In this document: positions 1,315-6,715 of the stretch, one piece after another
Layout: each line of letters begins with the position of its first letter
Position numbering within the stretch: position 1 is the first letter of the stretch
DNA from: a virus
Taxonomy: Duplodnaviria > Heunggongvirae > Uroviricota > Caudoviricetes
DNA length: 14,816 nt
Direction: 5' to 3' (one strand)
IMG/VR virus record: IMGVR_UViG_2548876941_000006
Notes under the pieces: generated by a model
What the model was told of the DNA's origin: nothing
The model's database searches: none
The model's input: only the letters and a program-made list of their open reading frames with translations
Made by a program: the position numbers and the translations under genes

Positions 1315-1655
1315 CAGTGAGTGACCTCTTCAAAGGTACAGTTAAAATCGGTATACATGGCATTATCCGAAATACTCCACTCCCTGCAGACAACCCGGAC
1401 GGTTTTGTTGTGTTTTGGCGGACGCCACAAAAAAGCACGTATCCCGGCATGACGGGATAAAAAACTGTCCAGCGCAGCACGGGAATATTCATCTGTGACA
1501 CGAAACACCGGTTTAAACGTTTTCAGATCCGCATTCAGACCACCAGCCCGTCGCTGTTCATATCCGTCACCGAACTTTACCGTAATAACAGATGGCTTTC
1601 GTGTCGTCTCCATCCCCTCGCGGGGGATCCAGTTAAAAACTTCAGGCTCAGGCAC
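1314..1655 (-). CDS. M: Minor tail protein M
   Basis: The frame contains KFGDGYEQR, GLNADLKT and FLWRPP, which match lambda gpM. Similarity extends upstream of the first internal ATG (FNWIPREGME versus lambda FRWKVKPGMD), so I place the start at GTG 1653-1655, preceded by GGAGGA with a 7-nt spacer. This overlaps the tape measure stop by 8 nt. The ORF-track start at 1700 is a TTG; ATG 1613 is an alternative. Confidence 0.8.
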   Translation of the reverse strand: MPEPEVFNWIPREGMETTRKPSVITVKFGDGYEQRRAGGLNADLKTFKPVFRVTDEYSRAALDSFLSRHAGIRAFLWRPPKHNKTVRVVCREWSISDNAMYTDFNCTFEEVTH

Positions 1656-4600
1656 TGTATAATCCTCCGTCCCGACGTGATGACTGCATAATTGACACAA
1701 CCCTGCTGTCGATCAGATCCACCAGCCCCCTGGCTGACTGCGTATCTGTCTCGCCATTGCTCCCTTTATTCTGAATACTGATGTGATACACGGGAGAATA
1801 GACAAATCCGCCGCCACCATTCACATTGCCAATGGCTCTGACCCCAAGAGAGCCGTCCGCTGCCCGCGTCAGTGGCATGATAGCTTCAGGCCCGGCCTCG
1901 CCCATCAGTCCGGCACCTTTCGCAAAAGCAAAATACGTCGGCGTATCCACAATAGTGTTACTGTAAGCACTCAGATTTGCCGATGTGTAAACACCACCTT
2001 TTGCGTTTGCCACTGCCCCCGAAATCCATCCTCCTACCGTACCAAGCCACCCTCCGGCGCCGGAGAGTGATTTCAGTCCGTTAACAATGGCCGCATTCAT
2101 CAGAATTTTTGAAACTTCCTGGAGAACTGAACTTCCCCAGTTCCTCCAGTCCACAACATTCCCGGCCAGTGCATCGGAAATATTTGATACCAGCCCGTCC
2201 ATGGTGGAAACGACAGCATCTGCCGCCAGTGAAGCATAATCGGTGGCGCTGTCTGCCCAGTTGATCAGTCCCTCCTGGAGTCCGGCATTCCAGTTATTAC
2301 GTAAAGCATCGGCCTTTGCATAATAATCCTGCTGATCGCTGAGACGCTCTTCCAGATATTTTTTATTCAGTTCTTTCTCCTGTTTCCACAGGGCTTCTTC
2401 AATTTCTCCGGTCTGATACTGTCTCAGGAGTTCGTTATTTTTCTGCTCAAATGCCTGCCGGATACTCCACATTTCCTGAAGTCGTTCACGCATCCGTGAG
2501 CCTTCACCATATCCCAGCAACTGCGCGTTGTTAGATGCCCTGGCACTGGCATTACTGTCCGCCAGGCTGCTTTCATACGCGGCAAGCTGCTCACGAATCT
2601 TTTTCTGGTCGATGAGTGCCGCATTCTGTAAAAGCATTTTTTTTTGCGCTTCTGACAGTGTTGATAATTCGCCCTGACTGACCTGATATTTCATCTTAGC
2701 CAGTTCAGTATTTTGCCCTGCCAGTGCTATTTGTTCTTTTTGCTGTTTAATCAGCCGTTTATAAATATCTTCTGTTTTTTCCGCTTCGGTCTTTTTATGT
2801 GTTTTGGGTTTATTTGCCTGGTTATTTCGCCATGCATCCAGTGAGTTATTGATATAATTCTGTCTGGCTGTCTGATACGCCTCCCCCACAAAACCAAGAT
2901 CATCCGCAACATAGCCCAGTCGGGCACGCTCACGCGCTTCCCCCTTCAGACGGGACAGAGCCAGTTCGCGCTTGCTGTTATTCAGTGCAGTCTGCTGCTT
3001 ATCATCCAGGGTGGCCTGTGGCAGCCGTAATGGTGCATTCACCAGCCCCTGTCGCTGCTGAAGTAATTCATTACCAAGTCCGAGAAGGCGATTAAACTCG
3101 GTATGCTGCCCGTTCATGATCAACAGGGACTGATACGCTTTGTTTTGTTCCGCCGCCTGTTGACGGATCAACGCCACCCGTCGCTCCTCCAGCCCGGCAA
3201 GCACATCCTGAATGGATTGCGCTTTACCCTGCATTTGAGTTAGGCGAGACTGTTCAACTGCCAGTTGATTTGTTGCTTCTGCAAGCCCTTCTGTGACAGT
3301 TTTTACCGACGTCATATGGTTAATCATAAAACCGTTATCGGTTGTCCAGCCCGGGTTTGCCAGCACATACTGATAGCCGGCAATTTTTTCCTGTAAGGAT
3401 TTGATCTTACTTTTCTGCTCGTCAATTAACCTGTTCTGCTCCTTCAGTGCCTGCCGCGTCTTTTCTTCATTATCTGACGTTTCAGGAAGCGACATTGCCG
3501 ACGTTTTCTGGCGAATTTCGTCGATTGTTGCGGCATACTGGCGTGCAGATTCTCTGGCCTGCTCCTGATTCTGATACATTGTGTACCAGGCCGTCGCCCC
3601 CAGCATGACGAGTCCCGGCACACCACCAACCAACCCCAGCGCACCACTTAACAGACGGCTCCCCACTGACGTAACATTATTCAGCGTTGTCTGTGCCGCT
3701 GTTCTGGCCGCAATATTACGGGTAAGCGACGCCTGGGCAACTGTCAGCTTCGCTTCTGCTGCTGCCTGCCTTTCGGTACCGCGAGCAGCAACAACCGCCT
3801 GTTGCGCACGATAAACCGCCGCACGCGCCCTGGCGGTTGCTATCTGTGTCCCCCGGAGTTGCGCTTCCGCAAGAGCTACTTCGTTTCTGGCTGCAGTAAT
3901 TAATCCGGCAGTTGCAGATCCAGCAGAAGCCGCCATATTGCCAAAATATCGGGCTACCCCGACAGCAACCAGAGCACCGGCAGCGGTTGCCACGGTGTCA
4001 ATATTGCCTGCAATACCATTCAGCACACCGGAGAGCGTCTTCGTCACTCCGCTTGCCTCGTTCGCACCACCAACCCAGGCCATAAAGGCGTTTTCAACTT
4101 TGGTTGCAGAGGATGAAACCGTATCAGGCATTGCCGCATATTCATCACGTAATGCCCCAAGCTGACTAATCAGTGCAGGAACAACCTTATCGGCAGTTAA
4201 CTTTCCGTTATCCGCCATGGCCTTCAGATCCTTACGGGCAACTCCCATTCCCGCAGCCAGCGCACGAATAACACGATCGCCGTTCTCATTCACCGAGTTA
4301 AACTCTTCACCGCGCAGCACCCCCTGCGCCAGAGCCTGACTGAACTGCGTGATCACCGAACTGGCTTCTGCTGTACTGGCACCGGATAATTTCAGGCCAG
4401 TAGAGATCGCCTCGGTGACTTTCAGTACCTCCTCAGAACTGTAACCATACTCCCGCATGGAAGCTGCAGAACGGGCAAAAAGGCTGGCGTTATCAGAAAA
4501 CGCCGTCCCCGTTCTCTGGCTGATCGCCATTAATTCACGCTGTGATGCCTGAAAATCATCACTGGACTGTGAGGCCTGCTTCAGACGGGCATTTACTGAA

Positions 4601-4881
4601 TTCCACTCATCGGCGAGAGAAATAAGATGACCGGTAGCAAAAGCCCCGGCAAATGCCCCAGCCATATTCAGTGCCGAAGATTTAGCTGTATTTATCTGAT
4701 CCGTCACTTCTGCCAGTGCACGCCGCATTTCACGGGATGCAGCAGCAGACTGTCGGCCTCCGTTCTGCATGGTGCGGTAGTAATCCTGCCCCATACGCGA
4801 AGCCCGGGAGATCTCTGACTGGAATGACCGGGAGTTTGCCGAGATTTTAATAATCAGTTCACGTAATGTCGCCACACTCAT
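1648..4881 (-). CDS. Tail tape measure protein (lambda gpH-like C-terminal region)
   Basis: 1077-aa ORF located between the GT chaperone genes and M/L/K. It is Ala/Gln/Glu/Leu-rich with long heptad-like stretches typical of tape measure proteins and has a central hydrophobic segment (LLSGALGLVGGVPGLVMLGATAWY). The C-terminal region (WRNNWNAGLQEGLINWADSATD ... RRDGGLYSA) resembles the lambda gpH C-terminus as recalled. GGAGA lies immediately 5' of the ATG, so the exact start is slightly uncertain. Confidence 0.9.
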   Translation of the reverse strand: MSVATLRELIIKISANSRSFQSEISRASRMGQDYYRTMQNGGRQSAAASREMRRALAEVTDQINTAKSSALNMAGAFAGAFATGHLISLADEWNSVNARLKQASQSSDDFQASQRELMAISQRTGTAFSDNASLFARSAASMREYGYSSEEVLKVTEAISTGLKLSGASTAEASSVITQFSQALAQGVLRGEEFNSVNENGDRVIRALAAGMGVARKDLKAMADNGKLTADKVVPALISQLGALRDEYAAMPDTVSSSATKVENAFMAWVGGANEASGVTKTLSGVLNGIAGNIDTVATAAGALVAVGVARYFGNMAASAGSATAGLITAARNEVALAEAQLRGTQIATARARAAVYRAQQAVVAARGTERQAAAEAKLTVAQASLTRNIAARTAAQTTLNNVTSVGSRLLSGALGLVGGVPGLVMLGATAWYTMYQNQEQARESARQYAATIDEIRQKTSAMSLPETSDNEEKTRQALKEQNRLIDEQKSKIKSLQEKIAGYQYVLANPGWTTDNGFMINHMTSVKTVTEGLAEATNQLAVEQSRLTQMQGKAQSIQDVLAGLEERRVALIRQQAAEQNKAYQSLLIMNGQHTEFNRLLGLGNELLQQRQGLVNAPLRLPQATLDDKQQTALNNSKRELALSRLKGEARERARLGYVADDLGFVGEAYQTARQNYINNSLDAWRNNQANKPKTHKKTEAEKTEDIYKRLIKQQKEQIALAGQNTELAKMKYQVSQGELSTLSEAQKKMLLQNAALIDQKKIREQLAAYESSLADSNASARASNNAQLLGYGEGSRMRERLQEMWSIRQAFEQKNNELLRQYQTGEIEEALWKQEKELNKKYLEERLSDQQDYYAKADALRNNWNAGLQEGLINWADSATDYASLAADAVVSTMDGLVSNISDALAGNVVDWRNWGSSVLQEVSKILMNAAIVNGLKSLSGAGGWLGTVGGWISGAVANAKGGVYTSANLSAYSNTIVDTPTYFAFAKGAGLMGEAGPEAIMPLTRAADGSLGVRAIGNVNGGGGFVYSPVYHISIQNKGSNGETDTQSARGLVDLIDSRVVSIMQSSRRDGGLYSA

Positions 4882-4891
4882 TCTCCGGACG

Positions 4892-4916
4892 AAAAAAAAC
4901 CGCCGAAGCGGTTTTT
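4892..4916 (-). terminator. Rho-independent terminator downstream of the moron gene (hairpin flanked by A-run and T-run, potentially bidirectional)
   Basis: Plus strand reads gAAAAAAAACCGCCGAAGCGGTTTTTg. On the minus strand this is a 6-bp stem AACCGC/GCGGTT with a 4-nt loop followed by T8. It sits between the moron stop (4924-4926) and the tape measure start (4881). Confidence 0.75.
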
Positions 4917-4923
4917 GTATTCT

Positions 4924-5265
4924 TTAAAGAAGTCCGGCCTTACGCCTTGCTTCCTGAAGATATTCATCATCCGTTTTTTGTGAAACGGAACTATCTGCAT
5001 TGCAAATTAAATCACTACCGCAATGCTTACATTTAATAGCCTCTTCTTTGATCAACTCCGCACAGTAAGGGCATTTCTTCATGCCATTGCTTACCATTTG
5101 TTGTTCATGTGCCTTCTCATCTCTTTGGATTACCAGCGAATGAACCAGAGCAACAATAAAGATCATCGCACCATATACCCACCATCCTAAAAATGAGCGA
5201 CCTTTGCTTTTCGCAATAATAGCTGGAATTAGTCCCAAAACTATTGAAATAAGTAAAAATTCCAT
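4924..5265 (-). CDS. Moron: small inner-membrane protein with two predicted TM helices and a C-terminal CxxC-x10-CxxC zinc ribbon; function unknown
   Basis: 113-aa ORF from ATG 5263-5265 (the ORF-track start at 5268 is a TTG). An AAGGAA ribosome-binding site lies about 7 nt upstream. Protein: [47 protein letters not shown] ... [24 protein letters not shown]. The gene is visibly AT-rich (roughly 35-40% GC by eye) compared with the flanking tail genes and is followed by its own terminator. Confidence 0.75.
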
Positions 5266-5279
5266 CAATGTTTCCTTAC

Positions 5280-5315
5280 TTTCTCAATAAAATGGGAATA
5301 ATAATCCAGTCAAGT
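5280..5315 (-). promoter_or_regulatory. Possible sigma70-like promoter for the moron (-35-like TTGACT; weak -10 candidates)
   Basis: Minus strand reads cacTTGACTggattattattcccattttattgagaaagtaaggaaacattgATG. TTGACT (plus 5308-5313) is a 5/6 match to the -35 consensus, but no clean TATAAT lies at 17 bp (candidates tttatt/tattga). Weak call based only on motif reading. Confidence 0.2.
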
Positions 5316-5322
5316 GAAAAGA

Positions 5323-5996
5323 TCACCGAGCAGCAACAAATAATGCCTTCTCAATCTCAGCAAATGGATCTGAGGTGCCTTCTGTATGCTCCTTCTCCCA
5401 CTGAAGAAGCGCATCATTCAGTGGCACTTTGACCCCCTGCGCACCGTAAACAGCTGAAACAATCTGGGCAGCCCGGATATCAGCCCGTTCGTCCCCCAGC
5501 GGGCTGAACCTGTCAAATTCTGCCCACATCATGATTTCTGATGCTGACATTTCCCGGCGTAACTCTGACAATGTGCGCCCCATCCTGAGCGCCAGCATCA
5601 TCAGAAAACGCATCCCCGGAAGCGCTACTTTTTTTTAACCTCGCCGGCATCACTGATCAGTTCCAGAGACTGCCGAAGAAGCCGCGCATGCACCGGGCCA
5701 TACACGGCAATTACCTGTTCACGATCATCCTCTGAAAATACAGGTTGCAGTCCGGTATCACACAGAACATCGATGAACAGTTCAACATCCGCTTCCAGAT
5801 TTCGGCGGGCGCGCTCCGCAACGGATAACGGTGTCTCATCATCTTTTGCTTTAACGATCTCCTGCCAGCGCAACCAGGCTTCTGCAGAAGGTTCCCGTAA
5901 TACAACCGTTGCGCCCTCCCATTCAGGCACATCAACAGTTTTATGGCGAAACCCCGACATCGTTGCCAGTGCCAGATTACGGATATTTTTAGTCAT
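5323..5996 (-). CDS. Tail assembly chaperone GT fusion (gpG N-terminus plus gpT-like C-terminus) made by -1 frameshift near 5628-5634
   Basis: The -1 frame ORF 5323..5613 (MRFLMMLALRMGRTLSELRREM...) has no convincing independent ribosome-binding site and is open upstream to the slippery site (...KKK/VALPGMRFLMM...). Predicted fusion is about 224 aa (123 from G plus 101 from T frame). Position and architecture match the conserved siphovirus G/GT pair. Confidence 0.7.
5625..5996 (-). CDS. Tail assembly chaperone (lambda gpG-like), zero-frame product
   Basis: ORF between the major tail and tape measure genes ending EVKKK-stop. I place the start at ATG 5994-5996 (MTKNIRN), 8 nt downstream of a GAGGA, rather than the ORF-track start at 6011. 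Its 3' end carries an A-run slippery site and is followed by an overlapping -1 frame ORF, the conserved G/GT arrangement. Confidence 0.8.
   Translation of the reverse strand: MTKNIRNLALATMSGFRHKTVDVPEWEGATVVLREPSAEAWLRWQEIVKAKDDETPLSVAERARRNLEADVELFIDVLCDTGLQPVFSEDDREQVIAVYGPVHARLLRQSLELISDAGEVKKK
5628..5634 (-). other. Programmed -1 ribosomal frameshift slippery heptamer A AAA AAG (G to GT)
   Basis: Minus strand reads GTT AAA AAA AAG TAG in the G frame. A -1 slip on A_AAA_AAG continues as GTA GCG CTT CCG GGG ATG CGT TTT (VALPGMRF...), which is the frame of ORF 5323..5613. Confidence 0.75.
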
Positions 5997-6010
5997 CACA
6001 TCTATCCTCA

Positions 6011-6715
6011 TTAACTGACGGTAACAGTGCAGGAAGTGGAGGTCACTTTGTTAACCGGGCTTGCTGAATCAGAAATCTCGCAGGTATACGCACCAGCATC
6101 ACCGGATGCTGCTGATGCCTTACTGAACGTTGCCGCCGTCTGTCCGGAAACAGGAGAACCACCTTTTTTCCAGGCATAAGAATAAGGCGGCACACCACCG
6201 GCAGCCTCAACCATCATTTCGAGTTTCGCTCCGGCAGAAACCTGCAACGTGCTGTTTAAATCGACCTTCACTTTCAGCGGCTCTGTCGTCAGCACAGGTT
6301 TACCTTTCAGGCGCAGGGAAAACGTTGCAGCCACAACACCATTGGTTCCTGCAGACCAGGTATGCTGACGCACCTCTGCCATAAAGGTAAATCCGTTGCC
6401 TGACGGAAAAATAACTTTAAAGCCATACGTGGTGTCATTGTCATAGGCACTGCGCAACGCGTTCTGGGCAGCATTGAGGTAAAAGTTGCCTGACATGGAA
6501 ATCTCTGACGCGGCACCAAGACCGTTAATATTTTCCTGCTCAACAGAACACAGCGTGGTGACATCAATATCCTGCTTTTGTCCTGCGGTAAACTGCACCT
6601 CTTTGATTGTACAGCTCAGGCCAAGATAGCTGGCAGAATCCAGGGTTTCTGCTGTTACCGGTGCAGACGAAATCATAATTTTCGTCAGTTGCGAACGCTC
6701 AAAATTAGAGGACAT
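6011..6715 (-). CDS. Major tail (tube) protein with C-terminal Ig-like domain
   Basis: Start ATG 6713-6715 (MSSNFERSQ) is preceded by AGGAG with a 6-nt spacer; the upstream extension to 6766 would run through a terminator hairpin and is rejected. Position is immediately upstream of G/GT. The C-terminal roughly 85 aa (...VSAGAKLEMMVEAAGGVPPYSYAWKKGGSPVSGQTAATFSKASAASGDAGAYTCEISDSASPVNKVTSTSCTVTVS) look like a bacterial Ig-like fold. Confidence 0.85.
   Translation of the reverse strand: MSSNFERSQLTKIMISSAPVTAETLDSASYLGLSCTIKEVQFTAGQKQDIDVTTLCSVEQENINGLGAASEISMSGNFYLNAAQNALRSAYDNDTTYGFKVIFPSGNGFTFMAEVRQHTWSAGTNGVVAATFSLRLKGKPVLTTEPLKVKVDLNSTLQVSAGAKLEMMVEAAGGVPPYSYAWKKGGSPVSGQTAATFSKASAASGDAGAYTCEISDSASPVNKVTSTSCTVTVS

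Follow-up and report, generated by a model that had tools for sequence, protein, structure and literature searches.

Accessory genes (morons) at the junction between the tail assembly chaperone and tape measure genes have been textbook material since phage HK97, although to our knowledge HK97 gp15 is the only one at this junction to have been studied. HK97 gene 15 encodes an inner-membrane superinfection-exclusion protein of the YebO family (Juhala et al. 2000; Cumby et al. 2012; reviewed in PMC3594210). T4 Imm is reported in a 2026 preprint to bind the T4 tape measure directly, its exclusion activity being weakened by the substitutions W50A and R33A (bioRxiv 10.64898/2026.03.06.709160). The subject here is a gene for a 113-amino-acid (aa) protein at the same junction in a 14,816-nt stretch of viral DNA (IMG/VR record IMGVR_UViG_2548876941_000006; this whole stretch is "the window" below). 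It contains the structural genes of an HK97-like siphophage, an E. coli prophage, and all of them are on the minus strand. The gene is referred to as the cargo gene, and the variable segment that carries it as the cassette.

The likeness to HK97 gene 15 is one of position and layout. The slot is the same (PMC3594210), as the first-pass annotation of the window had proposed: between the G/GT chaperone and a tape measure gene of the HK97 type. Both genes are small and AT-rich, both are followed by a hairpin/T-run terminator immediately ahead of the ribosome-binding site of the tape measure gene, and both have membrane products and are optional among relatives. Their terminator sequences are unlike each other, and so are the proteins: gp15 has 62 aa, one hydrophobic segment, and no zinc ribbon, against 113 aa, two helices, and a Cys4 ribbon in the window protein. 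HK97 gp15 also has a tested exclusion phenotype; for the window protein exclusion is a candidate role. The cargo gene can be compared as well with lambda lom and bor and with cor of phi80, N15, and HK022, likewise accessory genes in or near late operons, which have their own expression signals and alter the lysogen surface or phage susceptibility (PMC3594210); these, however, are unrelated outer-membrane or lipoprotein factors acting on receptors, and the window product is a predicted inner-membrane hairpin protein. The kind of element is known; the cargo family is uncharacterised, widespread, and different from gp15. The cassette and its parts are as follows.

4914..5357, minus strand: variable cassette, 444 bp against 44 bp in the insert-less PhiR49_2 (pairwise alignment)
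5266..5322, minus strand: upstream intergenic region, GC 0.30, with TTGACT, a weak TTTATT, and AAGGA, then 7 nt to ATG 5265
4924..5265, minus strand: cargo gene, 113 aa by translation, between gene T and the tape measure gene
4892..4916, minus strand: intrinsic terminator, hairpin 4916..4895 and a run of eight T (T8) at 4899..4892; stem AAAAACCGC / GCGGTTTTT, UUCG loop

That the cassette is optional is clear from its relatives. A census of 5,426 complete E. coli genomes by two-piece megablast found the T/tape-measure junction in 902 of them, with the cargo gene in 44 and without the cassette in ~858; with that many complete genomes lacking it, assembly artefacts are an unlikely explanation for the insert-less relatives. 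E. coli SC516 and Ecol_545 are among the carriers, with a cassette 99.6% identical to this one. In 11 sequenced E. coli phages the flanks are 97-98.5% identical, but the span is 700 bp instead of 1101 bp, and the cassette is missing. Alignment with PhiR49_2 puts the cassette boundaries at 5358/5357 and 4914/4913, with flanks 98-100% identical on both sides. The segment so defined comprises the last 35 nt of gene T, the intergenic region, the cargo gene, and a further 10 nt. Its left boundary lies inside gene T, whose last 35 nt are an allelic variant of equal length, which makes homologous recombination through the conserved flanks the apparent mode of exchange, and not insertion with target duplication.

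In the Juhala/Hendrix sense, the cassette is very probably a moron: an optional, compositionally distinct element in a tail operon, here at the chaperone/tape-measure junction. It is absent from collinear relatives (the 11 phages and ~858 of the 902 E. coli genomes). Its gene diverges in base composition, with a GC content of 0.389 against 0.517 for the window, and of 0.325 at third codon positions (GC3) against 0.47-0.66 across the 15 other window genes. It has its own terminator, though the same hairpin stays at empty sites. The first-pass annotation had judged the gene AT-rich by eye, and a windowed calculation bears this out: the lowest-GC 342-bp segment of the whole 14.8 kb begins at 4960, and just 0.9% of 342-bp segments are as GC-poor as the cargo open reading frame (ORF). 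It had also named composition like that of the flanks, and consistent presence as a core tail gene, as findings that would speak against it; the composition is far from that of the flanks, and the gene is not core among its relatives.

The history of the cassette is less clear than its present status. Across 57 distinct IMG/VR loci, the homologues share 62-70% identity or more with the window protein, with 42-61% for T and 58-87% for the tape measure N-terminus. Since these identities track those of T and the tape measure, the cargo gene has long resided in this slot within a large enterobacterial clade, and is better conserved than T itself. To judge from these sequences, most E. coli prophages may just as well have lost the gene as this one gained it, and the earlier description of the gene as "inserted" into the operon is not established.

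The cargo gene is real, translated-gene-like, and under purifying selection. The listed ORF (4924..5268) begins at an upstream TTG, but ATG 5265 lies 7 nt after AAGGA (5277..5273), in agreement with the gene at 4924..5265 and the ribosome-binding site of its own that were first annotated. In comparison with an 86%-identical homologue, the ratio of nonsynonymous to synonymous divergence (dN/dS) is 0.087, at a dS of 0.84. GC3 is low in all 50 of the 50 distinct homologues at the tape-measure slot (mean 0.349, against 0.510 in the adjacent tape measure gene; L035-L113). A recent foreign insertion was considered as the cause of the low GC and rejected: because GC3 is low in every one of these homologues although synonymous sites are saturated, the AT-richness is maintained, and is not just the trace of a recent transfer. 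It may have to do with silencing or with control of expression.

The region upstream contains promoter-like elements, TTGACT (5313..5308) and, after a 16-nt spacer, TTTATT (5291..5286), but a consensus promoter scan called no promoter upstream of the cargo ORF. Most relatives are better provided. The motif GTGAC[AT]-N17-TA[GA]GAT is found in 45 of 56 distinct upstream regions (L046-L110, 130 nt upstream; e.g., L047 6930..7000), 27-34 nt 5′ of the ATG and with its -35 element overlapping the gene T stop codon, and this strict spacing in so many upstream regions makes the family as a whole look independently transcribed. The sub-lineage of the window, together with the L056 group, has lost the spacer of this motif. 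The TTGACT on which the first-pass annotation based its promoter is thus present, but the putative promoter is a weak one: its TTTATT has no A at -11, and the conserved motif of the relatives is missing from the lineage.

The terminator lies 7 nt past the cargo stop codon and just 5′ of the tape-measure ribosome-binding site GGAG (4886..4883). The hairpin reads AAAAACCGC-UUCG-GCGGUUUUU, with a fold of -15 kcal/mol (z = -2.4); a scan called this palindrome on the plus strand alone. In relatives the stem shows compensatory changes (CCGC/GCGG, CCCCGC/GCGGGG, CCTCAC/GTGAGG, CCTGC/GCAGG), always just before the tape measure ribosome-binding site. The hairpin/T8 terminator first annotated is real and functional-looking by this evidence, but it was not brought by the insert: it is base-for-base identical in insert-less prophages of the PhiR49_2 type (L001 3388..3410), and since it is present at empty sites it belongs to the shared right flank. 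Of the classic promoter-gene-terminator layout seen in the first pass, an accessory, low-GC, self-contained gene is supported, with a weak putative promoter and a terminator that it shares with empty sites.

Where the cargo gene is absent, the terminator stands "solo": the ~858 E. coli genomes and 11 phages without it retain the hairpin/T8 unchanged at the T/tape-measure junction. In HK022, where no moron occupies the slot, this junction is a plain 19 nt with no hairpin (L128 1455..1480). The hairpin at empty sites could be either a scar left when a cargo gene was lost or a permanent landing pad or conserved boundary for cassette exchange.

The predicted cargo protein is a small membrane protein with a zinc ribbon, as it had been described from the translation. 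By Kyte-Doolittle hydropathy, residues 1-21 and 24-48 are hydrophobic. An AlphaFold model built on 70 homologues (predicted local distance difference test score, pLDDT, 75) has transmembrane helices at 2-20 and 25-45, a linker helix at 50-59, a small beta ribbon at 62-85, a disordered stretch at 86-98, and a C-terminal helix at 99-109. Pfam Zn_ribbon_3 (PF13248) matches residues 62-86, with CPYC-x10-CKHC, at 34.7 bits against a cut-off of 27. Eighteen columns are invariant across the 70 homologues, including all four cysteines of the ribbon (C65, C68, C79, and C82, each in 70 of 70). An NCBIfam scan of the protein found nothing meaningful, and a Foldseek search of the model against viral structures found unnamed zinc-ribbon proteins alone. 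The first-pass annotation had placed the ribbon in the cytoplasm, which turns out to be an assumption: counts of lysine plus arginine (K+R) are ambiguous, with a mean of 2.2 in the conserved loop SKGRS and of 3.0 in the 15 residues past helix 2, a stretch whose net charge is -1.1.

The C-terminal peptide (residues 95-113; window 4927..4980) is conserved within the 113-aa subfamily, and has weak matches to the C-termini of phrog_5031 (E 0.0013) and phrog_19323 (E 0.011). From these sequence matches, it may be a shared short binding motif.

A possible link to another known exclusion protein is by way of the Pfam family Imm_superinfect (PF14373; T4 Imm). Pseudomonas phage YMC11/02/R656 has in the same slot a protein (YP_009187462) that matches Imm_superinfect at 66.8 bits (E 1.6e-18) and continues with the same zinc ribbon; it aligns with residues 3-86 of the window protein at 33% identity (E 5e-15). 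This Imm_superinfect + Zn_ribbon_3 architecture is common. Like the window protein, such fusions have membrane helices with (I/L)PAxIA-basic-...-GW, a linker of ~20 aa, and then the ribbon, whose sequence (CPYCAExIKxxAIKC+xCGxD) is near-identical in the two; T4 Imm itself, unlike the window protein, has no zinc ribbon. Comparison of the membrane parts alone, window family against Imm_superinfect, gave hhalign P values of 4e-4 to 1e-3. The membrane-only score of 22.7 was not reached by any of 200 column shuffles (mean 10.4, maximum 20.9), and cross-scores with profile hidden Markov models of the two membrane domains were 8-14 bits. Homology of the membrane part with Imm_superinfect is suggestive on these comparisons. 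In hand-chained alignments, the family-invariant W28 and the conserved K21/R23 fall opposite W50 and R33 of T4 Imm, a correspondence that would offer a lead for mutagenesis and is not evidence.

The Pseudomonas Imm_superinfect-zinc-ribbon proteins (P0121-P0137; YMC11/02/R656 residues 112-195, L005 4300..4552) end in a predicted beta-alpha-beta-beta-alpha-beta domain (pLDDT ~82). The predicted fold matches generic ferredoxin-like domains (UreE, ACT), and a search of PDB sequences with the domain gave no match. Pfam SPOR hits it in 8 of 9 members without reaching threshold (E 0.011 at best); if the domain were a peptidoglycan-binding SPOR, a periplasmic location of the zinc ribbon would follow.

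A homologue search yielded 1,623 clusters at E <= 0.001, annotated just as "zinc ribbon domain-containing protein." The first ~86 residues are conserved and the C-termini variable, and all homologues examined are in prophages or mobile elements. Of the 80 best IMG/VR loci, 73 have the order chaperone, gene, tape measure, and all 80 have an intact reading frame. The same slot is occupied in Salmonella FSL SP-016 (67% identity), in the Pseudomonas phages YMC11/02/R656, D14C (L006 3501..3773), and PP9W2 (L134 3001..3273), and in Klebsiella ST846, ST974, and ST11 prophages, there beside a tape measure from a different Pfam family. In the Microcystis phage Mae-JY04, a homologue lies on the opposite strand, between a chaperone-like gene and one whose protein matches tape-measure PHROGs.

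Other homologues are in other places: at K/I and L/K, at a prophage end beside the host psp operon, before baseplate genes, in the early region of Marinomonas phage P12026, and in an integrase-bearing element of a Desulfobaccales genome. Genes for the related Imm_superinfect-zinc-ribbon proteins adjoin a repressor or an integrase gene, or lie where a prophage ends. A Pantoea homologue is part of a small island of short unannotated genes with no phage structural genes. The distribution is that of a mobile, lysogeny-associated cargo gene that favors the tape measure junction without being restricted to it. A gene locked to the tape measure was considered and rejected on the homologues at K/I, L/K, prophage ends, and immunity regions.

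Two observations on individual phages may be recorded here. Several deposited Pseudomonas phage genomes, D14C and PP9W2 among them, lack an annotation for the zinc-ribbon membrane gene; the one for D14C has a short ORF of the other strand annotated instead. In Mae-JY04 (L009 3501..4159), the zinc-ribbon membrane protein and a phrog_914 protein together make up a two-gene "reverse moron."

As to function, the best-supported guess, by analogy and with somewhat less than even confidence, is superinfection exclusion at DNA entry; it is proposed because the same step is reported for HK97 gp15 and T4 Imm. Entry of HK97 requires PtsG. The reading as a whole, of a moron whose product excludes superinfecting phages where the tape measure mediates DNA entry, is put forward tentatively from the sequence comparisons. 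A weak promoter of its own would supply the 113-aa protein in lysogens, and read-through would add to it late in infection. The protein would sit in the inner membrane as a two-helix hairpin followed by a short linker, the Cys4 zinc ribbon, and a short C-terminal helix. There it would keep superinfecting siphophages from delivering their genomes, at the step when their tape measure opens the membrane; the hairpin would be the part that meets the tape measure, and the ribbon might serve in oligomerisation or partner binding. A wider version is rather doubtful: that two-helix + zinc-ribbon proteins (the window family, the Imm_superinfect fusions, and at least two further membrane-domain variants) might form one widespread, uncharacterised class of Imm-like exclusion proteins targeting tape-measure-mediated membrane penetration. 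Their recurrence next to tape measure genes of unrelated families, in phages of Escherichia, Salmonella, Klebsiella, Pseudomonas, and Microcystis (once on the opposite strand), would then reflect a functional link to the tape measure beyond that of a hot spot.

Several points weigh against exclusion at entry. BLASTP of the window protein found no similarity to HK97 gp15/YebO (best E 0.30 over 11 residues), as expected from the first-pass annotation, which did not claim the gp15 sequence, and none to T4 Imm. Pfam Imm_superinfect (gathering threshold 27.9 bits) had no match in the window protein at E <= 1. The alignment with the YMC11/02/R656 protein has a 10-residue gap in the membrane part that drops part of the Imm core, and the hhalign probability for the membrane-only comparison is just 19%. 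The full-length PHROGs match (phrog_8436, E 2e-50) is annotated "unknown function." Among the 5,027 models of PADLOC-DB v2 there were just two chance-level zinc-ribbon matches (E 1e-3 and 7e-3), and a literature search on zinc ribbons with superinfection exclusion, morons, or tape measures, and on PF14373, gave nothing relevant on the family. Morons in general are found at this hot spot, and position in it therefore says little on function; some family members are far from any tape measure gene. The poor promoter of this lineage makes lysogenic expression of the window copy uncertain, as far as can be judged from the sequence. The charge counts are ambiguous as to the side of the membrane on which the ribbon lies, and hence as to the part that could meet an incoming tail.

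Several other explanations compete with exclusion at entry. One live rival, though rather unlikely, is that the protein is a lysogenic-conversion factor aimed at the host, modulating an envelope or membrane process (a transporter, stress response, protease, or signaling) and raising host fitness while leaving phage entry unaffected. Many morons have such roles (PMC3594210), and some homologues are at the classical positions for them, at a prophage end by host genes, by a repressor, or by an integrase; the Pantoea homologue, in its island without phage structural genes, would also fit, and the widely varying C-terminal extensions suggest different partners. However, in six phage lineages the family recurs right beside a tape measure gene, and these tape measures belong to different families; its architecture is common to Imm_superinfect proteins, and it has no domain pointing to a host target. 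Less probable again, but also a live rival, is a late-expressed lytic accessory, made by anti-terminated read-through, that would for example block secondary injection, tune lysis in the manner of a small holin/antiholin-type membrane protein, or handle the tape measure at the membrane. In nearly all loci the gene points the same way as the late operon and ends up 41-62 nt short of the tape measure start; its divergence across the clade follows that of T and the tape measure, at a higher conservation than T (62-70% vs. 42-61%); its own promoter is weak in the window lineage; and two helices with a charged tail resemble small holins. The gene is dispensable, though: it is missing from ~95% of the E. 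coli prophages that have these tail genes, and from isolated phages such as PhiR49_2. There is a terminator 3′ of the gene and, in most relatives, a promoter-like motif 5′ of it, and there are copies outside structural operons or, in Mae-JY04, on the strand opposite the tail genes.

Small prophage-encoded membrane proteins are frequent defense effectors, and the cargo-like spread of the family on mobile elements would also suit an abortive-infection or post-entry effector, in which the zinc ribbon senses an infection cue and the membrane collapses after DNA entry. This is quite improbable: the PADLOC models gave nothing beyond the chance-level matches above, the gene is single and small with no partner conserved across contexts, and it encodes no enzymatic or sensor domains. 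That the ORF is a chance one, or a decaying remnant without function, could be suggested by its shortness, AT-richness, and weak promoter, but is effectively refuted by conservation: the low dN/dS (0.087 at dS 0.84), the 18 invariant columns in 70 homologues, the frame intact in 80 of 80 loci, and the more than 1,600 homologues.

If exclusion at genome entry is true, the cargo gene would provide a second, easily handled system, of the E. coli/HK97 type, for studying how the tape measure crosses the inner membrane, and would give a function to a common prophage gene that affects how susceptible clinical Enterobacteriaceae and Pseudomonas are to phages. Otherwise, this is one more uncharacterised lysogenic-conversion gene.

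Across the window, Pfam names TerL, portal, capsid, head completion protein, HK97-gp10-like, tail completion protein, tube protein, G, T, tape measure, M, and L; an Rfam scan of the window found no RNA families. The immediate neighbors of the cassette are:

5625..6011, minus strand: tail assembly chaperone G (Pfam Phage_TAC_1, E 2.8e-58)
5323..5613, minus strand: T part of the G/GT tail assembly chaperone (Pfam Phage_tail_T, E 4.5e-20)
1648..4875, minus strand: tape measure, HK97 type (Pfam Phage_HK97_TLTM, TMP_3, Tape_meas_lam_C)

A slippery A AAA AAG (5636..5628) lies directly 5′ of the G stop codon; such a run at the end of G is expected for the G/GT frameshift. With HK97 gp16 the tape measure shares 56% identity and the N-terminus MATLRELIIKISANS. 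Its start is probably GTG 4875 rather than ATG 4881, the start given by the ORF lister (region 4873..4881): the ATG is a mere 1 nt from GGAG, while the GTG, at 7 nt, agrees with the HK97 gp16 N-terminus and with the annotation of PhiR49_2.

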